A stretch of 63,894 nt of DNA, counting the filler, from Reclinomonas americana ATCC 50394 (taxonomy: Eukaryota): assembly GCA_048213135.1 (NCBI GenBank). It is 12 parts of 9 records of this genome, joined end to end, with 100 filler letters (N's around TTAATTAATTAA, not from the genome) between each part and the next. Parts side by side here need not be neighbours in the genome. Positions count along the whole stretch, not along the records: positions 1 to 13,184 come from AFZH01015965.1; 11 more parts are not named here. One strand, 5' to 3'. How positions within the stretch are numbered: the stretch's first letter is position 1; each line of letters begins with the position of its first letter. Under the pieces are notes generated by a model. It had not been told where the DNA came from. It saw nothing but the letters and a program-made list of their open reading frames with translations, and did no database searches. Positions 1 through 22,217 of this stretch are shown here, piece by piece. Position numbers and translations under genes: made by a program.

Positions 1-1995
1 ACAGTTTCGGTGTTAGTGCCACCTGCTGTGGTGGTGCTGATGGCGGCGATCGCTTCAGTCGCGGGGACGTGGCGGTCGCCGGTCGGACACGCGGTGAATG
101 CAGCGGTGGCCTTGTGCGCGGCTGCGGCTGCTGGTGTGCAGAGGCGGCTGCAGTGGACGGCGTCACCGGGCCGCCTTCGACGATGTCAGGAGAAGCGACG
201 GGGTCGGAGGCTGCCGGTGGCGGTGGTGGTGGCAGTGGCGGCAGCGTCGAATGCAAGTCTGCATCGCTACCACGACGCAGCATCTCCTCTGTCGCGATCA
301 CTGTGGCTTGCACACTCGTAGGTGGTGCGGTGGTGGTGGTGGTGGTGAGGGGTGCAGGCGTCAAGGGTTCATCACGCAGTCCCGTCGCCGAGGCCAACTG
401 TGGTGAAGAGTCGGCCGTGGGTGCCGAAAAAGCTGTGCCCGAGTTGGCCATGGACAGACGCAGTGCCATGCGTGGCGACTGCGTTTGCGACAGCGGCGTT
501 GGCGACGGTGCGACAACGTGCACTGGAGTTGGTGCGGAGGTGGGCACAGGAGACGGTGCTGCCGAGGGCCAAATGATGCGCGGCACTGACGAGTTGTTGA
601 GTGTCGAGATCACCGTCGGAGCTGGCGGCGAGTCGTACAAGTTGGGCGGCGGTGATTGCGACGATCTGTGAGCAGAGATGTTAAAAGAGGCGGTGGATCA
701 GTGTGCGTGCAATCTACGACTCACCCTCGTGACTGTGCCGAAGTTGGTCGCGACGAGGAGGTCGGCGTCCAGTTGGCCAGCATGGCCTCCATCGACGGCA
801 CCAGCGACACGTAATCGTCACGATCGTCCACCTGTTCCGCATGAGACTCACAGAAACAGTGGAATGCAAGCAGCACATAACGCAAAACGCACCTTGCTCG
901 ACGCCCCGCTACGTGCACTGGAGCCGCCCTTGGGCGCATTGAGCATGACCATCAGCGACGACGACGACGATGGATCTCCAGCATTGCGCAGCATGGCGTT
1001 GGCGGTGCGCTGCGGTGGCCCACCACTACCTCTCCGAAACCGAGGATCCATGCCACCACCTGTGCCTCCACCTGCACCGCCACCGCCACCACCTGCGGTG
1101 CCACCGTCCTCGGTACCACTTTGCACCGACGACGACGACGGCGAGGCTGTGGTTCCGCTGCCAGCAGCCGCACCACGTCGCGCACTGCTCATCGTCATCC
1201 CCTGGCTCTCCTTGTTCATCAATCCCAGCAACAGCGGCGTCGAGTGTCTTCTCTGCGACATGCGACTGGCAGCAATAGCCGCCATGCGAGCCAGCTCTGC
1301 CTCATCGTCGTCGTCGTCATCATCATCATCATCATCGTCGCCATCAGCATCACCACCACCATCATCATGTTGGTGATCGCTGGGTCGCGGCGACGGCTGC
1401 GTCACGGCCAGCATCGGAGCTGTGGTGGTGGCGGAGACTCCCAGTGTGCGACCATCCAACTCCAGCGAGGGATGTGCGCGTCGAGTCTCCACACCACCGG
1501 GCACACGTCGCAGTGCGCTCTGAGTGGGCGAAGTGCCTCCGGACGACGACGATGATCCGCGCAAGGGCGACACTGAACACGCAAGGATCAGTAACAAGCC
1601 TCACACGCACAACTGTGCAAAAGAGAGAGAGAGAGAGAGAGCGCACCTGACTTGGTGGCGCGCTCTCGTGACACGCTGAGCATCAGTGATCTGCGTGATT
1701 GAACTGACTCCAACTGTTGTTGTTGTTGTTGTTGTAGAGGTGGCGGAGACGGCTGTGATGGCACGTGTGCGGGTAATGGAGATGGTGGGTGTGCTTGTGT
1801 GGCACGGGAGCTGACCACCGAGTCGGAGGCACTGTGTGGCCGTTGGCGTTGTTGTTGCGTCGTTGGCACAGTCAGCGACACCATCATGGTCATCATCATC
1901 TCTTCGCTGGCGGTGGTGGAGGCGGTGGACGCCGGTGTTGCCACCATCACCAATGGCGGTAGTGGAGGAGGAACGGGGGAGGGTGGCGCCTCCAT
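1..1995 (-). CDS. Multi-exon Ser/Pro/Gln-rich low-complexity protein of unknown function; 3' end runs off the window
   Basis: ATG at 1995 (MEAPPSPVPPP...). In-frame exons are joined by GT..AG introns at about 1646-1576, 891-832 and 724-667. No recognisable domain in the visible part. Confidence 0.55.
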
Positions 1996-2082
1996 GATCG
2001 CCAACCCCTTATTTGGGACGAACGTTCAATGTCCTGTGCGTGAGTTCTTTCATTAAAACACCGCGTTGTGCCGTGCTCAACG

Positions 2083-5000
2083 TTACAGCCCGGGAGCGAG
2101 GCCGAGCATTTGCACGAGGCTGAACAACTCTGCATTGGCGTTTTGCTGCGAAAAAAGACATGGTGAGCGACAACTGGGTGGCAGTGCGGGTTGCTGCCTG
2201 CACATACCTCGTTGCTCACACGGTCGCGCATCTGCTTCTTGACTGCGCGGGCCACGTCGGCCACCTTATGCTCGCAGTCGGTGAGAATCTCCTTCTCAAA
2301 CACATCTGTGTGCGTGTGCGTGGATGAGTGGATGAGAGTGATCGACATTGATCGTCGATGTGAGCGCACACTCACCGAGCTCTCGTGTCGCTCGGGAGTG
2401 CTCCGACTCCAGCTCGTCCAGTCGGCGGCACATCTCCTTGTGCTTCTCCGTGTACAGCGACACTTCACCGACCAGCTTTTGCTGGGTGGCGCGGAAACGG
2501 CGCTGATTGGCTGTGTGCAGGAGATGAGTGCATCCATGCAGCGCGCGCTTCGTGAAGCGGCTGCACGGCACGCAACTCTCCAAGGCCTTGCGCAGCTTGT
2601 CGTACTGCTGCTGGTAGCTGAGCAGCAGCTCGTCGCTGTCTCCCACCAACACGTGAGCGACGAGCAGCAAAACATGGATGGATGGGTGGTGCGGCGCTCA
2701 CCGTCGCTTGTGGTACTGCTCACGTGCCTCGTTGACGAGCACCTCCACCTCGCGTTGCGCGTGCGCCGTCAACTCGACCACGACCTTGCGCTGGTTTGTG
2801 TGACGTTGCAGGATTTGCTGCGTGAGCGCCGACAGTTTCCTGCGTGGGCGGGGCCACAGTTGAGTGACTTGCATCCGCAAGGCGAGGAGACACCAGCAAC
2901 GCAACTGCTCAATGCTCTTGGTGTCGTCCAGGTCGAAGCTGTTCGACTCTTCGCTGGCGGGCGAAGCAGCTGCGAAACATGGTGGTGAGTCACGGTGGCG
3001 GCGGGAGTCTCTAGTGGACGCGACTCACCAAGCATGGCCTTGAGTGGTGTGGGTGGAATCGCCGATGCGGTGGCGGCTGCTGAGCGTCGGCGTGCCGGCT
3101 TGTGCGTCACGGTACTCGAGGCACCGCTGATGGCCGACACTGGACCGCTGACACGCGAGTATGAGAAGCCGTCGACCTGCATTGCATCGTCGTAGTCTTC
3201 GTCCTCGTTTCCCTCTTCCTCCTCCTCCTCCTCGTCCTCCTCCTCGTCGTCGTGGGAGGGGACACGGCGGTAGCGTGTGGCTCGCTTGGCAGCGGTGCTG
3301 TTCAGGCGATCGTCATCGTCATCCATCTCACGGACTCTGTCGTCGTCGCCGTCGTCGTCGGGATCGGCAAATGCCTTGCTGAGCGTCTTGCGTGACCGCT
3401 GCTGCGCTCGTGTTGGTCAGGACGACGATGCCATCACGCGACACACGCATAGCACTCCTTCTCAAGCTCACCGACTTCTTGGTCGACGCCATTTTGACAT
3501 CTGCATCTTCGTCCTCCTCGCTCGAATCGTGCAGCAGGCGCAGGTTGTGGAGGAATCCGGCTGCAACGGTGACGAAGAGTGCATGAGTGAGTGGGCGGAG
3601 AGCCACAGGGCATGTAGAATGACGCAACGTCGTTCACGGGTGGAACGATGACCACCGCCACTACCACCAACAGGGGCGGCGTTGGCGGGACTGAAGATGG
3701 CCGTGGAGAACTCATCCGCATCCTGTGTGTGTGACGGTGAATCGTGTTGAGAAACACGATGCATTCCCGCATGGCTGTGCACACGGTTGTGAACCTGATC
3801 CTCGGGTCGGGCCAGTGGCGGGGGCTTCGGAGAGCGCAATCCAGCAGCCGACCCCGCCGTCGTCCTGACGCCGCTGAGCAGATCCGATGTGGGAGCCGCA
3901 GCGGTGGCAGATGTCGCGCCCTTGGTGCTTCTGTGGGAGTGATTAGTGCGAGTCATGCCGGGCACGCTTGCGGCAGTGCCGTGGACGCAACTTGCGCGAC
4001 GCGGCAGTTTGCTTGGCGGGAGGCTCGTCGGCCTGTGTCCGGCCTCCACCTTTCTGCCGCTTCAGCGGCGGCTCCTCTGTCGTGTCCGTGGTGTCGGTCG
4101 CTCGCTTCTTGCCACCACGCGCACGCTGCGTGATAACAAGGGTAAGGCACCTCGCATTCACGGAGACGGTAGGAAGTTCATGCGTACCGGTTGCAACTGC
4201 TCGGCCTGGTCGGAGGTGCGCTTCCGAGCGCGGGTCGACGGCGTGCGCACACTCTGCAGCGGCGGACTGTCGTCCTTGGGCGGCACGGCTGCCGGCGGCG
4301 GCATGGCATTGCGGGCCTTGCGAGCCTTTGTCACGGCTTCCTCTGCCACGTCCTCCCCGTCCTCGTCGTCATCATCGTTTACCAGGGTGCTTCCGCGGCC
4401 TCGTGGCGCAGCAAGGTCCTCGAGCATGCGACCGGCGGCGGCACGCATTGCCCGTCGCTCGGCGGCCACTTGCTTCTTTCGTTCCTCATCCTCGCGAGCT
4501 CGCTGTGCCGCCTCGGCCTCTGCCGCCTCGGCCGCCTCTGCCCTCTCCTTCTCCTGGCGACGACGTTCGGCCTCGGTCGCCTCCTGGCGTCGACGTCGCT
4601 CCTGCTCCTCCTCTTGCTGGCGACGGCGCCGCTCCTCCTCCTCTTGCGCGGCCTCGCGGGCTGCGCGGCGGCGATTCTCCTCCTGCTGGAGTTGATGGCG
4701 TTCGGCTGCTTCGCGGCTCTTGCGCTCCGCTTCACCCATCTTCTCCACCGGATCGGCAGTTCTGCAGCACAGTGGTATGTCGGGAGTGAGAGGCAAGCAG
4801 CGACGGAGTGCGAGACTGGCGTGTGTGCGTGTTTGCTCGCAACGTTTTGATGACGGGCCGACCAGTCACCTTGGCCGCCAGGGCGGCGGCGGCGGCGTGT
4901 GCACGCGCGGTGCTGTTCTCCTTTTCCGACTCTGGTGGCGCACAGCGTGAGCGATTGCTTGTCGCCACGCACAGTACGAGAGAGGAGGCGGCGTACCGGC

Positions 5001-7206
5001 TGGCATGGGCATGTCGACAATGGCGGTGCTCATCTTTGCGCGGGTCGGTGCCGCGACCACCACGGGTGCATTGACGTCGGGCACGGGCTTTTGCGACAGC
5101 GGTTGTGGTGGCGGCACCTCGTCAACAGCTGTGCGCAGGAAAATGAGTGGAGTGGATGCAGCAGGCAGACTGTTGTGCGACCGTACCGGCGGCAGCGTCG
5201 AGCGCCATCTCCATCTGTTCCGACATGCGCGCCTGCTGCTTCTGATGCTCCTTCCAGGCCGCCATCTTGGGCGTCACCTCGCGAGACAGAAAGGCCATGG
5301 CTGCGTTCAATGAAAGGCAAGGGATGAGTGCACATGGTGGGGATCGATTACGGAAGTGCCACACGGGTACCTTCTTGCGGCAGACGCATGACAATGGTGA
5401 TGTCCGACGTGGCATCGTCGATGAGCTGTGTGCGTATTGGTCAGGTGAAAAAAAAGCACTGTCGTACACGTATCACTCACATTGGCGAGGTCGTGAATGG
5501 TGTGCAGCTGGAGGTGCACCTCGCGGAGCGCGTCGCGCACCTTGGCCGAGCGGATGTTGGGCCAGTTGAGGAAGTACAGATCCTTGTCCTGTTTGCGGTC
5601 CTTGTTGCCGTGAGGGCATTCAGCCAGCAAGCACCAAGTGCAACAAGAAGACACACGTATCCGTCATACCTGCGCCACGTAAAAGCTGATGCCTTCCGGA
5701 CTGAAGTCGACCCAGCCGGGCGACAAGTGGCGAGTGCCGATCTGAATGGACTGCGTAATGTACGAGTACACTCTGCTCGCAAAAAGAATGAGTCGATGGC
5801 CAAAGTACGTGAAGACGGAAGGTGGGAGCAGACACAACTTGCGCTCGCTTCCGAGGACGGCCTCACGGTTGACGGCGTTGAGAAAGTCGCGGACACACTG
5901 CGCGACGACATGTACAACTCGTCAGTCAAACTCCATGATGGAAAAAGAGTGGTGGCGCCACGCAACATCGGGAAAATCGGCTGCAGTGGCGTGCTCCAGG
6001 CGCCCAAAGGCATCCACCAGCGTCTCTCGGTTGCCGAGGATAGCCGGCAGTCGATTGCGCAACGCAGCGCGTTTGCCGGACGGCTTGTACATGACGATGC
6101 GGAACAGCAGCTCGGTGAGGTTGGCTTGCAGCGGGTACTCTGTGCATGTGTTCGCTTGTCAGTGACGTGTGCGTGCGGTGGGTGAGGGAATTGAATGCAT
6201 TATCTCTCACCATTTGCCTCCATGATGCTCTGAAACAGCGCTTTCCTGCGCGCGGTCATGATGTGAGAACTGTGGACACCGGCATCTCATGACAACTCAA
6301 CGCAACAGCTCGTCGAGAATGTGCGCTCGCTTGACCAGTGTCTCCTTGGCCTCGGGACGGTGGGCCAGCAGAAGATTGCCAACCTCGGCGGTCTTGCGCT
6401 GCGCCACGGCCGAGAACGGCGGCCCCGGCGGCCGCACACACAACTCGAACAACTCGCCGAGGACCTCCTCCACGAAATACGCCTTTTCTGTGGAGCCGTG
6501 CGAGGAGAGACCAGCAGTGAGTGCACAGGCAACAGACGCAGCCAAGGCCGCCGCCTCCTGCACGCAACGGCGTTCGTCCTCGGACAAAATGTCCACAATG
6601 GTCAGCAGGCCAATCCACGTGCGCACAAATTGCTGCATGACGCCAAACTCGGGCCACATTCGCACGCACTCACGCAGCAGTCGCACTGTGTACACATGAG
6701 CGCAGTGACACAGAGAGAGAGAGAGAGAAGAAGGAAAATTGACACAAAACACTGACCAACAGTGTGCGCCAACTTGTCAGCGGCCTCATTCTCGCGCTTC
6801 TCTGTGGCGCTGCTCGGCACACCTTGCTCCTCCAGAGTGACAATGAACACGTTGCAGACGACACGCGCATTGGGAAAGTTGGCCGAGTGAATTTCCTGTA
6901 CACACACACACACAAGGCACTTTGATGAGCGGGCAATCGGACTTCAATTGGACCCACCCGCGCACCCCACGCAACCGTGGCCAACATGTCGACCAGCTCC
7001 ACCAACACCTCTGCGGCCACTGGTGCACTGGTCAGTGCAGTGGCCGAGGAGAGAGTGGTGCCTCCATCCGCAAGTGCGTGGTGAGCAACTCCGCCCTCCT
7101 CGCCCTCTGCACTCAGCGCTCGCCGCTCATGTGCAAAGGCCTCCAACAGTGCAAACACACGCGAGCGAGGTGACGCAAGAATGCTCTTCAAGTCGGTGGG
7201 TGGCAT
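2083..7206 (-). CDS. SYCP2/Red1/ASY3-like meiotic chromosome axis protein (ARM-like + PH-like N-terminus, disordered middle, C-terminal coiled coil)
   Basis: Spliced N-terminal region reads EYPLQANLTELLFRI...AFGRLEHATAADFPDCVRDFLNAVN...RKVYSY...GWVDFSPEGISFYVA, matching the SYCP2 N-terminal domain pattern as recalled. A long E/R-rich and S/P-rich linker follows. Coiled-coil exons at 2083-2990 end ...LVQMLGLAPGL*. Confidence 0.7.
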
Positions 7207-7357
7207 GGGGTGTGTGTGTGAGGGGTGGTGGTGCTCTCTCCGCACTTTGCACCCAATTGAACTTGTTCTTTGCTCGCCACACACGTGAAAAAGTGAGCGC
7301 GGGAATGACGTCACGTCGATGTCGACCTTTTTACAATAAAAGAAAAATGGGCAGCAC

Positions 7358-8834
7358 TCACAGGCGCATGCGGGCGGTGCGCTCTCCGTGCTGGTACTGC
7401 ACTTGGTAGCGTGCCTTGTCGGAGTCGGTTTCGATGCCTGGAAGACAGAGTGAGTCGATACATAATTTGCTTGATGTGAAGGTGACAGACCTTCGCCGTG
7501 TCGCTTGTCACGATCCCAGCCGCCCTCTGCAAAGCAACGCGCTTGAGTCTAGTGTTATGGAGGCAGGGACAATCACGGTGGATCGCAACTGTACGCGGAG
7601 CCGTCACGGATCTTCTCCTCGCCCTGGCCGTGCTTCAAATTGTCTTCCCATTCACCCGTGTACACCACCTCGCGATTCGGCAACGCCTCCACTCCGTGTC
7701 CTTGCTTCTTGCCGTATGCCCAGCCACCGTCGTAGCTGAGTCCGTCGGGCCACACCATCAGACCTCGTCCGTGTTGCTTGCCGTCGTGCCATTCACCATC
7801 TGTTTTGTGTGTGCGTGCGTTCAGCCACTTGTACGTGTGAGGGGAGGGGTGGAATGAGCGACCAACCGTATCGCGATCCAAACGGCCATGACATGGTGCC
7901 GTAGCCACTCTTCTTCCCTCGCTCCCACTGCCCGCTGTACCTGTTCATTCAATGCGCGACTGAGTGTGACGCACAGAAGCACCACAGGCCGTTTTTTTCC
8001 TTTGCTCCGAACCGTTCTCCATTCACTTTGCTCTCCACGCCATAGCCGTGCTCGTAATTGTCGATAAACTGCAGCAGTACAAGTCAGTGATGGGCGCGCG
8101 CGCGCGGATTCCGGACAAGCTCGCCATCCACGCAACATCCTACACGCGCGCGAATCGACACCAGCAAGGACACAAGGATCAGTGAGTACAAACACACACG
8201 CGCGCGCAGAGACCAGCGTGCGGACTGCCAACGCAACACCCTGAGCGGACACACGCCATGTAAGTCACTCCACCAGCACAACACGTTCTCGCCCCTTCAT
8301 TGTCAACGCACCTCATACTCGATGGATCCATCGGGGCTCACATAGTGGCCCTTGCCGTGGAACAGACCAGCCTTCCACTGGCCCTCGTATCGACTTCCAT
8401 CGGGAAACTGGCAAGTGCTGTTTGACACAGAGTAGGAGAAAGATCAGTGTGACAGAGACAAGAGCGATGGTGTGTGAGAAGAGACGCAACCCGATGCCAT
8501 CAGGCAGATCCTCCTTCCACCCGCCACTGTACACCATTCCATTGCTCCACTCTGATCACACACACACACACAAAGAGTCAGAGTCAGAGTCGCGCGCGTG
8601 TGCAAGAGTCAGTTGTCTTCTCTCGCAACTCATGACACCATAGCCGAAGCGCTTGCCTGTGTCGTCAATCACGCCATCGTACTCTCTGTGTGTGTGAGTG
8701 TGAGAGTGTGAGAGCACAAAGATGCGATCAGTTGGTATCTTTGTAACACTCTTCCTGTCTCTTTCTCAGTGTCTCTCTCTGTGTGTGTTGCTCATGTGCA
8801 CAACGCACCCCTCGTGTGACTCGAACATTGACAT
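7358..8834 (-). CDS. MORN-repeat protein with two consecutive 3-nt micro-exons
   Basis: Repeated YxGxWxxGxxHGxG units (YSGGWKEDLPDGIG, YEGQWKAGLFHGKG, YDGEWHDGKQHGRG, YDGGWAYGKKQGHG, YTGEWEDNLKHGQG). Stop TGA at 7358-7360; the start is approximate. Confidence 0.85.
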
Positions 8835-9007
8835 GATTCAATCGCTTCTTCTCGATCGTGGCACCAAAACGTCGAAACGGACATGTCCTGTGCCGCAGAA
8901 GATCGCGCGACGTTTGCTCTCCCACTCACCCTCCTTCTTAAAAGTCGCCGGTAAATACATTTACACACTCACACACTCGCTGAAGCTCGCTGTGCAACAT
9001 CAACGGA

Positions 9008-11260
9008 TTAAAAGGGATTCAGCTGACGTCCCAGTCGCAGCATAAAGTCGGGCATCACACGACCGGGCGCACGAGCGAGCTCCGAATCGCCGCAGCGAGT
9101 CAGCAGAACGCTCACATCGCGTGTCAGTGGGCCAATCAGCTTGTAACCGGCTGGGTCCTCGCGTTGCTGTTTTGTGTGCACGAGATGAGTGCTGAGGAGA
9201 CTGACAGAAAGAGAGAGATACGAGATGGCACAGACCTTTTTGAGCTCGAGAACCCCGTATTCCGGTTCCCAGATAAAGGTGCGGAGTACGTCGTGCCACA
9301 CGCGGTAGTCGCCCGCCATGCAACCCTCGATAATAGGATCGGTGTGACCGTACTCTTGGAAGACAGACGCCGACACGGTGACTCCGGCGGCGCGCAAAGC
9401 GTGGCAGAAATCGATTGTCATTCGCCACGGCACACTCGTGTCCTCGATGCCGTGGTACAGAGCGATGCGCGGCAGCTCGGCAGCGACCAGTGGACCACGC
9501 TCGTCGGCCAGCAGGTGACGCGGCGAGTAGAGGCACATGTCGTTGCACATGACTCGGCGCAAAATGTCGCGATCGAGGCCGCGCTGGCGTTTGCAATTGC
9601 GTGAGACGACAACGATAATGGAGTAAGGGAGAAACAGAGAAGAACAAACCGTGTGGAAATGATCGGCCACATTCACCGCGTCAAACATGCCCGACACGCC
9701 GACGTAGCCGAGCAAATCCTTTGGCTTCCACGTGGTCGGCAACTGGCCAGGGTTCGGGCTCGCAAATCCGAGATCACGCTGCGCCATCTCCCACAGCAAG
9801 CACGCGCAGATGTGGGCGCCGGCTGACTGGCCGCACAAAACCACGCGCTTCGGATCGCCGCCGTACAACTCGGCGTTGCGGAGGATCTGTCGAGGAGATG
9901 AGAGGAGAAGGGAGGAGAAAGGGGAGATGAGATGGAAGGAGGGAGACGAGGGAGAGGGAAGGAGAGTGAGAGCGAGAGGGAAGGAGGGCGAGAGCGAATG
10001 AGAGTGAGAGGGAAGGAGAGTGAGAGTGAGAGGGAAGGAGGGCGAGAAGGAGAGAGCGAGAGAGGAGAGCGTGAGAGGGATGGAGAGCGAGGGGGAGAGC
10101 GAGAGGGGGGAGCGAGAGGAGGAGAGCGAGGGGGGAGATGAGAGAGGGAAGACGACAAGAATAACACACTGCACAAGAACAAGCCCAACACCTCACACTC
10201 CGGTCCACCCAGACTCACCCACGACACAGAGTCGCCGACATCATGAATGGAGCCACGGACGTTGGCCTGTGGGAAGTTGCGGTAGTCTGGGGCGAACACC
10301 AGAATGCCCTTGGAGGAGAGCCACCGTGCCACCCACGCGACCCATCCTCGGAAACCAATCACCCAACAGCCACCTGCAGTGCGACAATTAGCACGTGAAG
10401 AAGCAAGGAGACGAGGAAGACACGAGGAAGCAAACCAGTGACGACAATAAAGACAGGCGCGAGGGTCTTGGCGGTGCGCGCAGTCCTCGCCGGCAAGTAA
10501 ATATCCAACGAGTTGCGACTGCGTGGACCATACGCCACTCCTCGCCGCACTCGATTCGAGAACAGCCAATGAAACACGCCCGGCATGTACCCAGGCAACA
10601 ACATAAACACAAAAATGAACAGCCGTGCCGCTCGCACCAGCCACCTGGACACTCGCCTGAGTACACTGTATGCAATATACACGAACAGGCGTCACATATG
10701 CTCACCACAATGTTCCACGACTGAGTGCAAACACCAAGCGGATGGTGAGCCGCGTCAACAGCACCAAGTGCCACATCACATTGTGCCCGGAGAACACAGG
10801 CGACGACTTGGACGCCTTCCCGTCAGCCGCCTGTTCTCTCACAGTGAGTGCGAGGCAGATGCAGGAATCATCCACATGTACGATGCCTCACAGATGCAAC
10901 ACACGCACACAAACAACGAGACACAGAGAGAGAGAGAGAGACACGCACCTCCTGCGCCAACTGCTCGCACAATCGACACCCGATCTCACTGTGCGAAGTG
11001 CGTCTGTGTCTTTTGTGCTCCTCCGGAGATCCCTCATCTCCGGCAGCAGCAGAGGCCGAGTACACACGCGGTGTGCTCTCCACTGAGGATGTGTTGAGAG
11101 AAGATGAGGAGAAGGAGTCGCGCGGAAGTGCGTCATCTTCTTCTTCTTGATCGTTCACGTGTTGCTGTTGCTGTTGTTGTTGTTGTTGACTGTGATGGTG
11201 GTGCTCCATGTCGTCTAGAGAGCGGCTCTTGCCGGTGCTCTCAGCGCGATTGTGAAGCAT
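9008..11260 (-). CDS. Isoprenylcysteine alpha-carbonyl methylesterase (ICME)-like alpha/beta hydrolase
   Basis: YGPRSRNSLDIY, VTGGCWVIG, PDYRNFPQ, GGDPKRVVLCGQSAGAH (GxSxG nucleophile), LYHGIEDTSVPW, GHTDPII, C-terminal NPF*. Start codon uncertain. Confidence 0.85.
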
Positions 11261-11673
11261 AGCACCGGAGTTCTCGCTCTCTCTGTGAGCGATCGATCGG
11301 AGCCGCGCGCTGCGACGTTACAAATCGCAACTTGGGCAGTTCAGTCTGAGTCCGTCGGTGTGCGGTTCGCCGTGCTGCGCGTGCCTGCGTTGCGACGTCG
11401 TGTAAGCAGTTGGCGCTTGCGATTTCTCTCCAAGAACGTCGACGTCGAGCCATATCGATATCTGCCAAGCCATCCTTGATCTTGACCCGTGGCGCATGAT
11501 ACGTTTCGACGTTCTCTCGTACTGCCTCTGCGACGCTTCAGCTTCAGTTTCTGACCCGCGAGCTCACTCGACACTGCGCCGATCCCTGTACACTTGCAAA
11601 ACGCTGCTTTACGTACTCATCTCTCTGTGTGTTATCTCTATACTACGATGCAATCATCATGTTACTTACGATA

Positions 11674-13184
11674 CTACTTCCGTTTCCGGCTGCTACTACC
11701 ACCACTGTCACTGCCGCCGCTGCTCGGGCTGCCGGCCTCCTGCCACGCGCCTTCGTCGTCGCCTGCTGCTGGGTTGGCGACTGCGGCCTGCGTCGTCCAC
11801 TCAAAGTGCACGAGAAGCGAGACGTGGTCCGAGGGGTAGTTCTCGCCCGGCAGCAGCGTGTCGGAAGAGACCTGCTCGGCGTCCAGTGTCGACCACACGC
11901 GGACGGGTGTGACGGCCGGCGAGTGGAACACGTAGTCCTGAGCATGAATGAGAGAAGAGTCTTATTTTTTGCGGCAGGCAGGCACGCACGCATACGCACC
12001 AAGACACACTTCAGCACCGCTCCTTCGTTCACGTACTGCCAGGTGGTCCACGGAGCAACAGCTGGAGCGCCGTCGTCTTCTGGCTGCTGAGTGCCTGCGC
12101 AGCGCAACGAGAGAAGCATGAGTGAAGGCACCAGGTGGTAGATCGGCACGCAATGGTACTGCACCTTCGTCGAGATCGTGAATCAGCTGGCACATCTCCT
12201 CCGTGTCGGCCAGGCTGTACACGCTGCGCATGCGCATCGGGTTCCCGCAAATGACGGAGCGCACGCGGCTTCGCGGAATGGTGTTGAAGTCGCCGCACAA
12301 GATCACCGCCGCCTCTTCACGGTGGCGCTTGCGTGTCCACTTTTGCACTTGCTGCGGGCAGAGAGAGGCGTGTGAGTGGGAGAATGCGGTTGCCAGCGGT
12401 GGTGGTGGTGGTGGTGGTGAACGCACGTGCATCATCTGCTGCGTCTCGAGAACGCGTCGGTCCTCGTTCTCACGACCCGGCGCCGCCTTCAGGTGCGTCT
12501 CGCTGACAAACACAGGGCGACCAGTCGGCTTGTGCACCAGCTCGAGCATGAGGAAGAGCTGGCCGAGTAGAGCCTTCGGGCGACCGGTGTGGTGATAGTG
12601 AAAGCACTTTCGCTTCTTCGGCGCAAACAACTCTGCGCGCACAAAGGCAGTGAGCTGGCCTGCACACATCCACGCGCAGGCACCAACTCACCCTCGCGGT
12701 AGAAGATGGCACACCCGTCCATCGGAGGCTCCCCTTCTGCTCAGCACATCGTGAGAGCAGGCACAGGCGAAAAGCATCGGCTGCTCGCTGCACGTACCTC
12801 CACGTCGCCGGAAGTTCGACTTTGCCTCGAACTCGCCTCGATAACCCAACTCGCCCAGCCGCTGCTCGTACATGCCTGTGTCCTCCAAGCCTCAGGCACA
12901 TAACAAATGCGAACACGTGCCTGCTGCCGCACGTACCAATGTGGTTGACCTCGCACAGGCACAGAATATCGGCCTGTGAGCGCTCCAACTCGGCCAGAAT
13001 CAGCGGAATGCGATACTCCCAGGCCAATGCCGAGGGCGGAGTCTGCAATGCGGACATGAGTCTCAATGAAAGAGAGAGAGAGAGAGAGCACAGTGTGTGA
13101 CACTGAACGCAACGTGTGCCTCAAAGAACGACGTCAACCCGTCGGCCAAGCAGTTCCAGTGCAGCACAGAGAAGCCCGCGTGTT
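11674..13184 (-). CDS. Nocturnin/CCR4-family EEP phosphatase/deadenylase, 5' end at a gap
   Basis: SVLHWNCLADGL, ADILCLCEVNH, DGCAIFY, THLKA, ILCGDFN, LDYVF, NYPSDHVSLL are the EEP signature motifs. Confidence 0.88.
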
Positions 13185-13284
13185 NNNNNNNNNNNNNNNN
13201 NNNNNNNNNNNNNNNNNNNNNNNNNNNNTTAATTAATTAANNNNNNNNNNNNNNNNNNNNNNNNNNNNNNNNNNNNNNNNNNNN
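13185..13284. other. Artificial contig linker (N44-TTAATTAATTAA-N44). The same linker occurs at 16634, 18846, 27124, 34061, 46369, 51563, 54113, 57009, 58640 and 62653.
   Basis: An identical 12-mer giving stop codons in all six frames is centred in 100-nt N blocks. Confidence 0.95.
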
Positions 13285-19224: not shown

Positions 19225-22217
19225 TCAGATCTCCTGCTCGGCAATCTGCTGTCCGGTGATCCACTTGCCGTGGAAGCCGTAGGGCACACTGCATAGACAA
19301 ATCAATGTCAGCAGAGAGAAACAACATTTGCGTCTCTTGCTCAGCAGACGAACCGGCGTGGGAGCTGGATAATGGCCACAGGCTCGTCGCTCATGGTGCG
19401 CGCGTCCCAGACGCGGCAATCCGACATGCTGTGGGCGTTCGCTGATGAGTGCGAGCTCAATAGCACAAGTTGTGAGGTATGATGAACGTAACTTGGTGGT
19501 CTCGTCGTATACAAACGTGATCAGGTATCCGTCGTCCTCCTGCAGGCGCTGCAGATTGCGTGAGTCCACGAGCGACAAATACTGCGGTGCGAGTGCGTGC
19601 AACACTGACCTCCGAGGGGCGACCAGTGCGTGGCACAAAGACGAACTCGCCGGCGGCCATGTTCGGTCCGAGCTTGATCTGCGCATGGTTCTCAGTCACT
19701 TTCTGTTGTCTCTTCTCTGTTCTTAACACAGCTTGCCAACTCACATCCTTCACGGTGTTGTTCACCAAATCAAACTGCGTGGGAGAGAAGATGAGAATCG
19801 TCATTGTCACATTGCACAACTGGGGGAGAATGCACCTTGCAGCAGCCTTGGATCAGAGGCTGCGCAGTGACACAAAATTACACACAGGAAATACTGAAAT
19901 GACAAGTCGCAGAGCGGCAACTCACATGCTCCGGGTCCAAACGGGCGCAGTACACGAAACGACAGCGCCGACCGACCAGACCGGGGTGCACCACTGGGAA
20001 TTCCACGCTGCGCATGGTGGGAAGCGTGAGGGATGTGGCAAAAACCTCTCAAGCAAGCGCAAACAAATGGCACACACACACACCAGCGCTCGCCATCGAG
20101 CGCAGTCTCCTTGACCGCACCGGTGGCCATGTTGAACCGCCACTCGAAGAGATACGAGTCGGCCGCCACCTTGGTCTCGTACAGCGCAATGCCTGGCTTG
20201 CGGCAGGCCAGCAGCACCACCTCGTCGCCATCTTCCCACGCATTGGCAGTGTGGAACACAAAGCTGATCTCTTGCTGGTCAGCATCGGCGAAGGGAAAGA
20301 GAGAGAATAAACGTTTGTTACGCACCAAGCAGGCGCCTCGAACCAGCGAATCTTGTCGGCGTTCTCGGCCATGCGAGGCAGGATGCCAAAGCGGCTCGGC
20401 AGCTCGGCCTCAAACTGGAACGGATGCTCACTGCGCGCCATGCGTGATCCGCTGCGAAGTGGCGAGTGTATGGTTGAGTGGACGAGACACATCATCGCGT
20501 TCCTGATTTGTCGTACGCAACTCAAAGGTGAGTGGCAGATCCTGCGTGTGCCGGGAGAGTGAGTGCGAGGACTGGGAAGTGCATCAGAGGAAGTGTACGC
20601 ACCATGATGATTGAGTAGTGCTCGGTAATGGCAAAGTCGTGCATCTGTACAAAAAACAAGCACACACACACACACACGCACGCACAACACCACCACCAAC
20701 AACAACAAAAACAAACAAGCACACACACAAACATACATGCAGATCAAGAAGTGAGTCTCATAACGACAGCAGTCGTACAGGATCAAACGCAAAGAGAGAA
20801 CCATGACGGGGCGCGGAATATCGACCGGGAAATCGCGCACCAACTTGCCCTCGGCCGACACGACGCTGCTCTCCATCACCACCAATGAGTGCAAAGGGGG
20901 GGAGACGACCAGCATGGAGTGGACAACGCACCCGTAGAACATGTACGGCTTGGCCTGGATGCGGTAGCAGAAGAACACACACTCGCCGGTCACCGGGTCG
21001 ACCTTGGGGTGAGCTGCGATGTCACTCGGAGGTGAGTGAATGGAAGAAAAGCGCACTCACATCTCTCGCAACCTCTCGGCGGCGCACCTGTGAAGGGGTG
21101 GTCGAGCTTGCCGTCAAAATCGACAACACCAATGGTCTCGAGCGTGGGTGCCAGCACCTGCACCGGTTTGTCACTCTCCACGAGCGCCATCAGGCGACGC
21201 GCGTGATATTCGATGCTGGTGTTGCTGGAGCCGAAGTTCATGTCTGTTGGACGCGCTCAGAATCCACACACACTCACGCACGGACAGACACGCAAACGCG
21301 CAACGAGCATAGGTACGCGGGCGGGCACGAGTCGAGGAGAGCGGCGGCAGTTCCTTGACCGACGGCAGCAGCCCGAGATGCTGTGGTGACCATCAGTGAG
21401 TGGACACGTGTTTCGCGCACACAGCTTGCCACGCGGCACACCTTGCGAATCTCGAACCAGGCGATCTTGACAATGCCCATGGGGCCCTCCATCTGCGCAA
21501 TGCGCGGCGCCACCGGCTGCCCGCACATGCGCTCCACCACCAGCCGATCGGTCTCCACCCACTTATTCCGATAGGTGGCCGACCCGTTTTCCAGTCGCAC
21601 ACCGTGACTGCGACGCAGAATGGGTGGTGTTGGAGGCAAGAGACAGGGAGCGGGCGCACAGACAGAGTGTGTGCAGCACGCAACAGCATTCCATCGCCGT
21701 CGAACCAGTGATTGTCGCCGTCGCAGTCGAAGAGCGGGTTGGGTCCATTGCGAACAAACATGCCGTCCAACTCACGAGGAATCGCTCCCGAGACCACTGG
21801 CAGTTGTGCGGCCACCAGCTACGAAGACACAGAGTCAGATAATGAGCATGGTAAAGAGGTGGGTGAGAGGGAGCAAAAAGACCTCATCATGCACGGGACC
21901 AAAGTTGCCATTCAAAAACATGTCTGCCGATCATGCAATCATTCAGTGCGTGCATTGACATGATGCACCATGAAAGGAAAGCACGTACTCTTTGCGGCCT
22001 TGTCGCGCGCATGCAGAGAGGGGAATGCGATGCGCCACACGAGGCAAATGGTTCGCCAGGTCAAGTAGAAGGGCAGAATGCAGAGGCGAGTGGAGAACCA
22101 CAGCAGTGTGCGCATCAGGCGGGGAATCAGGCTCATCAGAGCTGCGGAGGGTGAGGAGGAGGTGGAGGAGGAGGAGGAGGAAGAGGGAGATGCTGTGGGG
22201 CCGTGGCGAGTGCGCAT
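19225..22217 (-). CDS. Carotenoid cleavage dioxygenase (RPE65/CCD family)
   Basis: FLNGNFGPVHDE, GMFVRNGPNP, HWFDGDGMLHGV, FTAHPKVDPVTGE, MHDFAITEHY, FHTANAWE, GEFVFVPR, EDDGYL, VPYGFHGKW. All four Fe-binding His are present. Confidence 0.93.

Follow-up and report, generated by a model that had tools for sequence, protein, structure and literature searches.

When an internal exon is very short, it is harder for the acceptor and the donor on either side of it to be bound at the same time. In recursive splicing, one gap between two exons is removed stepwise; the AG and GT of a ratchet point abut, and nothing of it stays in the mRNA. Ratchet points and recursive exons have been described in Drosophila Ubx and in long introns (bioRxiv 10.1101/290007). 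Single exons of 3 nt have been reported in mouse Ncam, Drosophila TnT and homothorax (hth), and human cytohesin-1, RPS24 and MAP4K5 (PMC8042270); reports on cytohesin-1 speak of diglycine and triglycine variants, and an account of RPS24 gives three micro-exons in a row, one of them of 3 bp. Exons of a single nucleotide are reported for the plant genes APC11 and VPS55 (PMC8831610) and for Fusarium CYP621A (PMC12940212), while adjacent micro-exons of 5 nt and 12 nt, RNA-verified, are reported for a peptidase M1 gene in rice, Zygnema and land plants (PMC8831610, PMC11096116). Our limited full-text search of open papers returned no pair of consecutive 3-nt exons.

Here we describe a candidate for such a pair, encoding Gly and Asp, in a MORN-repeat gene of Reclinomonas americana ATCC 50394. 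The gene lies in a 63,894-nt stretch of DNA from assembly GCA_048213135.1, all of which was analysed and which we refer to as the window. Its pieces are joined by 11 linkers of the form N44-TTAATTAATTAA-N44 with stops in all six frames, the first at 13185-13284, and further runs of N of 20-583 bases occur within it. The site of interest is inside the uninterrupted piece at 1-13184, and no assembly gap is involved.

Compared with the animal 3-nt exons, the candidate exons are alike in comprising one codon each, in being flanked by GT-AG introns and in adding one residue in frame. The animal exons are lone, situated between long introns and usually regulated as cassettes, whereas those of the MORN gene, in a protist-like genome, stand back to back between introns of 68-98 nt and look constitutive. 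With the plant 5-nt and 12-nt pair and the 1-nt exons they share being ultra-short or consecutive, being missed by annotation and being recognised by the protein motif that they restore; at 6 nt in sum, the 3 + 3 pair is shorter than the 5 + 12 pair of peptidase M1. The plant and Fusarium cases were confirmed by RT-PCR or RNA-seq and are deeply conserved, whereas the MORN pair is a prediction from sequence. On these comparisons, the pair is probably an extreme variant of a known feature and not a new mechanism.

The MORN-repeat part of the host gene occupies 7348..8834 on the minus strand, with an ATG at 8834-8832, and comprises nine MORN repeats in 11 exons. Joined by reading frame, the exons measure 26, 56, 61, 106, 3, 3, 56, 74, 210, 36 and at least 90 nt from the ATG onward, and the ten introns between them measure 123, 78, 73, 71, 98, 68, 72, 67, 63 and 53 nt. 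No frameshift interrupts the model, which stays open across all nine repeats and 11 exons, and the predicted protein consists of nine consecutive MORN repeats, 23-24 residues each; repeats 4 to 6 have 23 residues each when both single codons are included. The initial annotation had held that each intron around the micro-exons is of a size typical for the window, which agrees with the 53-123 nt spanned by the other seven introns of the MORN part.

The 70-aa MORN exon gave 11 generic MORN proteins at 32-49 % identity among 41 candidates of the protein collection. In the metagenome contigs 15 loci matched, again generic MORN throughout, with 39-59 % identity across short segments; no ortholog or paralog covering the micro-exon site was found in either collection. 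Three plus-strand open reading frames (ORFs) and one other minus-strand ORF over the same region gave no Pfam family at E <=0.1, and neither Rfam nor tRNA scans found anything in the window. The host gene runs on downstream to ~6100, where no Pfam family was convincing (the best was Tctex-1, E = 0.061, below the cut-off). Inside an apparent long C-terminal exon, the segment at 6488-6568 on the minus strand may be an 81-nt in-frame intron (GTTGCGTG ... CCACAG, without a stop), and its translation is Ala-rich and of low complexity. The C-terminal piece 6306-6683 had 0 matches among 2008 candidates when compared with longer proteins; this piece probably contains an in-frame intron, in which case the query would be an exon/intron chimera.

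All elements of the stretch under study lie on the minus strand. The upstream exon (8312..8417, 106 nt) carries MORN repeat 3 together with residues 1-2 of repeat 4, Tyr-Glu, and ends in TAT GAG. Following it are intron A (8241..8311, 71 nt; donor GTGCGTTG, branch-like motif GTGACTTAC, acceptor CTCAG), micro-exon 1 (8238..8240; GGT, Gly, MORN profile position 3), intron B (8140..8237, 98 nt; donor GTTGCGTT, branch-like motif CACTGATC, acceptor TGTAG), micro-exon 2 (8137..8139; GAT, Asp, profile position 4) and intron C (8069..8136, 68 nt; donor GTTGCGTG, branch-like motif CACTGACT, acceptor CTGCAG). The downstream exon (8013..8068, 56 nt) starts with TTT ATC and supplies the rest of repeat 4 from aromatic position 5 (Phe). 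Every coordinate and string that the initial annotation had given for the three introns and for GGT and GAT was reproduced from the minus-strand sequence. Within the 243 nt between the flanking exons, the AGs that lie at least 45 nt after a donor are, as read from the sequence, the three acceptors only. Intron A has an in-frame stop at its third codon, so read-through of this intron is impossible. The frame is kept with zero, one or two codons included (243 = 81 x 3), and frame therefore gives no discrimination among these forms.

The register of the MORN profile bears directly on the two codons. Pfam MORN (PF02493; cut-off 22.5 bits) matches the upstream exon on 8312-8386 with 35.4 bits (7.5e-09; profile positions 2-22), the longer segment 8312-8443 with 43.5 bits (2e-11) and the 210-nt exon with 69.9 bits. 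The downstream exon alone reaches 16.4 bits, under the Pfam cut-off, with residues 2-19 of the 8015-8074 translation aligned to profile positions 4-21. In this register the first residue of the downstream exon (Phe) falls on position 5 and the last two residues of the upstream exon (Tyr-Glu) fall on positions 1-2, from which it follows that exactly two residues are missing, at positions 3 and 4. Position 3 is occupied by the hallmark Gly of the MORN motif.

We scored repeat 4 with a script-built HMM made from 78 repeats of 11 database MORN proteins, which is not Pfam's own model. Column 3 of these repeats is Gly in 76 of 76 non-gap cells. The profile is not fully independent of the gene, as the search for the database repeats was seeded with the host gene's other repeats, in each of which position 3 is Gly. 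Of the 77 non-gap cells in column 5, 74 hold Trp, Phe or Tyr, and Asp stands in column 4 of 6 of the 78 repeats. Repeat 4 scored 12.0 bits with both codons (profile 1-16), 3.9 bits with neither (4-16), and 2.8 and 2.9 bits with GGT only and GAT only, respectively. The gain of ~8 bits is thus obtained solely with both codons in, and the Y-x-G-x-aromatic motif is in register only in that form. The earlier proposal that both micro-exons complete the MORN motif, and that skipping them deletes the conserved Gly, is borne out for the predicted protein by the Pfam register and the profile scores. Even when complete, repeat 4 is the second weakest of the array (19-40 bits for repeats 2, 3 and 5-9; 9.8 bits for repeat 1), so a degenerate repeat is conceivable.

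Both micro-exons, a term applied here to internal exons of up to 30 nt, are bounded on each side by GT-AG introns that follow the local donor consensus, with donors GTGCGT, GTTGCGT and GTTGCGT and acceptors CAG, TAG and CAG. Most introns carry the branch-like motif YTGAY, often with a T after it. Introns B and C have YTGAY, whereas the motif of intron A, GTGAC followed by TTAC, departs from it at the first base; the distance from the branch A to the AG is ~24 nt in intron A, ~39 nt in intron B and ~15 nt in intron C. The window contains 41 copies of GTTGCGT; dinucleotide shuffles give 13.5 +/- 3.5, and none of 100 reached 41. Among nine introns placed by frame or homology, without use of the donor sequence (the seven other MORN introns and two carotenoid-oxygenase introns), four start with GTTGCG and two with GTGCGT. 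The donors of introns B and C are in the commonest local class and the donor of intron A, which is of the same class as that of the first intron of the MORN gene, is in the second. The host gene contains GTTGCG eight times on its sense strand, and the six occurrences outside the site in question all stand where an exon must or may end: those at 8629, 8490 and 7589 are fixed as exon ends by the MORN frame, and those at 6975, 6568 and 6306 are only consistent with the ORFs as exon ends.

The commonest donor of the window, GTTGCG(T), can be described as GT with an extra T before GCGT and is far from the usual GTRAGT; minus-strand examples include 21684 and 21072. Our literature search found no splicing paper on a GTTGCG donor consensus. 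The 72-nt intron after repeat 4 (7941-8012, minus strand) needs a weak donor, GTTCGG, for the 23-residue MORN register. A strong-looking GTGCGT lies 38 nt into this intron, 34 nt before its acceptor, and its use would break the frame. It seems to be an unused decoy, and unused donor-like sites therefore do occur within introns. Elsewhere in the window there also seem to be introns of ~150-240 nt, so that size alone does not exclude one intron of 243 nt.

Two described arrangements invite comparison. Recursive splicing resembles the present case in that one exon-exon gap is removed in successive steps. At the MORN locus, by contrast, three bases lie between AG and GT, and these are predicted to stay in the mRNA; the exon-GGT and exon-GAT junctions make no GT donor, and the locus thus lacks the features of a recursive splice site. 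Nor does it have the build of a stwintron, as introns A, B and C each have their own uninterrupted donor, branch-like motif and acceptor.

How readily such an arrangement arises by chance depends on what is counted. The 12-mer pattern YAG-NNN-GTTGCG occurs three times in the window, with 1.85 expected and three or more reached in 32 of 100 shuffles, and is not enriched. Two of these three matches, however, are 101 nt from each other, both in frame on the sense strand and within one gap of one gene; by arithmetic from the window rate, the chance of two in a given 243-nt stretch is ~6e-6. We also counted complete intron units, defined as one of three strong donors with YTGAY and YAG, against 60 first-order Markov simulations. 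Five pairs of complete units lie <=15 nt apart in the window (simulated mean 0.23, maximum 2), and one lies exactly 3 nt apart (mean 0.017 per simulated window); the pair formed by introns A and B is left out of this count because the branch motif of intron A fails the YTGAY pattern. Among the other close pairs are those around the conserved 11-, 14- and 10-nt exons of a tandem gene family described below. The total of complete units was weakly above the simulations, at 73 against 52 +/- 8, so the informative statistic is the adjacency of units, and the pattern is too loose for calling single introns.

Along with the MORN gene, the window holds a second instance of very small coding blocks. 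At ~29070-32420 on the minus strand, a small gene is present in four tandem copies, with a Gly-rich N-terminus after the ATG, a conserved C-terminal exon and a fragmented middle. Read by eye, the family has blocks of 11, 14 and 10 nt, the second of which is 11 nt in copy 4, and every block has YAG before it and GT(TGCG) after it. The blocks are conserved among the copies while the sequence between them diverges, and in our own reading most differences within blocks affect the third codon position of a single frame. Copy 4 has an apparent need for an extra 5-nt exon. With canonical GT-AG boundaries, its coding length is a multiple of 3 and those of copies 1 and 2 are one base short. This shortfall points to a 1-nt piece missed between the second and third exon, or to a boundary there that is non-canonical; in copy 3, the interval between these exons contains a gap of 20 N. 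Given these conserved tiny blocks, consecutive tiny exons seem normal for this genome, and this evidence is independent of the MORN gene.

The best explanation of the locus, and one that we consider likely, is that GGT and GAT are two real single-codon internal exons of a spliceosomal MORN-repeat gene, with both codons probably included in the mRNA. The splice sites, the MORN register, the ~8-bit gain and the other tiny exons in the window all lend indirect support to the proposal of two real 3-nt exons with which the initial annotation began. The pre-mRNA, from an intron-rich and GC-rich genome, would contain three independent short GT-AG introns of 71, 98 and 68 nt. Each would be recognised across the intron, that is, by intron definition, as suggested by the short and uniform size of these introns. 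Their removal would join Tyr-Glu, Gly, Asp and Phe in sequence and so complete the fourth MORN repeat. A 3-nt exon would be too small to hold an acceptor complex and a donor complex together, so the introns are most likely removed one after another. Removal could run 5' to 3' during transcription or 3' to 5'; either way, a tiny exon would first fuse to an exon of normal size. After removal of intron A, GGT would form the end of a 109-nt exon before the donor of intron B, and after removal of intron C, GAT would form the start of a 59-nt exon behind the acceptor of intron B. Intron definition or ordered splicing, as put forward in the initial annotation, is a reasonable inference from the size of the exons.

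The main rival is a single intron of 243 nt (8311-8069), followed by alternative use of the micro-exons. If the 243 nt were removed in one step, the internal sites would be decoys and repeat 4 a degenerate repeat, two residues short. Such an intron would preserve the frame, and a degenerate repeat would be in keeping with a repeat that is weak even when complete, in an array whose first repeat is irregular too. Against this, the two skipped codons would by accident encode the invariant Gly and restore the exact profile register. An apparent decoy GTGCGT is present in another intron of the host gene, but no other inferred intron of this gene has an internal GTTGCG, and removal in one step would require a single intron to contain two perfect GTTGCGT donors, both of them 3 nt downstream of a YAG with its own branch-like motif ahead of it (~6e-6). 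Similarly, the chance-level frequency of YAG-NNN-GTTGCG alone across the window is in its favour, but adjacent complete units at a gap of 3 average 0.017 per simulated window. There appear to be longer introns in the window, and yet 243 nt is twice the largest other intron of the MORN part (123 nt). We consider a single 243-nt intron unlikely on this balance.

That GGT and GAT are alternative cassette micro-exons, with isoforms containing both, one or neither coexisting and tuning or inactivating repeat 4, has precedent in animals, where many 3-nt exons are described as alternative (Drosophila TnT and hth, cytohesin-1 and RPS24; PMC8042270). All four combinations would keep the frame, and the compound introns left by single inclusion, of 172 and 169 nt, are within the window range. 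Single inclusion nevertheless scores below skipping both (2.8-2.9 against 3.9 bits); with the lowest scores of all, the one-codon forms look like errors and not like products. All sites match the strong local consensus, moreover, with no weak site of the kind usual for regulated exons, and we regard coexisting isoforms as improbable. It would be very surprising, finally, if the locus were not a working gene at all but a decaying copy or an assembly artefact whose arrangement has no consequence. The draft nature of the window, with its 11 six-frame-stop linkers and other N runs, could be taken that way, but the gene is inside an uninterrupted 13-kb piece, its splice signals are intact, and the model is open from the ATG through nine repeats and 11 exons without a frameshift.

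Two real single-codon exons could also be part of a wider pattern. In a broader and still tentative reading, which has a fair chance of being right but on which we would not rely, the pair is constitutive and belongs to an extreme fragmentation of exons throughout the genome, in which GTTGCG is the commonest donor, introns are piled at neighbouring codons, and exons of 3-14 nt are routinely joined by strictly sequential, intron-defined splicing. Were this true, no shorter pair of consecutive spliceosomal exons would be on record, and the locus would lend itself naturally to measurements of splicing order.

Confirmation in RNA would mean that the spliceosome can define and join two successive one-codon exons, which would set a lower bound for the size of tandem exons. 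Stepwise removal of introns would then be forced, with its order readable from partly spliced intermediates. The locus is also a warning for annotation: a standard gene finder or read aligner would report a single 243-nt intron here and silently drop the conserved Gly, and the reading frame of a small gene family elsewhere in the window likewise relies on exons of 5-14 nt. The value of the MORN locus would be that of a limiting case of tandem exon size, of a site that itself reports the order of splicing, and of an illustration of what annotation misses.

Introns A, B and C, all of phase 0, occupy three codon boundaries in succession, which makes the locus an unusually dense example for studies of intron gain. 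Duplication of a single intron in tandem was considered as their source and set aside, as introns A, B and C have 61 % column identity, mostly in signals and GC/GT runs. Compared with the window by blastn-short (64 kb searched), the three introns gave low-complexity matches of 17 nt or less only, and no copies of the kind expected of introner-type repeats were found within the 64-kb window. The introns are not copies of each other or of other sequence in the window, and we therefore see no trace of their origin. An RNA structure that brings the sites together was likewise rejected: the 283-nt stretch is less stably folded than its shuffles (z = +2.47), 200 of 200 of which did at least as well.

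Two further minus-strand features of the window were recorded. At 63614-63820 there is another pair of complete intron-like units, 11 nt apart, with upstream sequence that looks coding; it may be due to chance. A mere hint of a plastid-bearing host lineage comes from a carotenoid cleavage oxygenase gene at ~19240-21960 (Pfam PF03055 among its matches), split into at least 10 exons: the matches listed for its ORF are mainly, and the named ones all, proteins of cyanobacterial type, over 12-42 % of the query.
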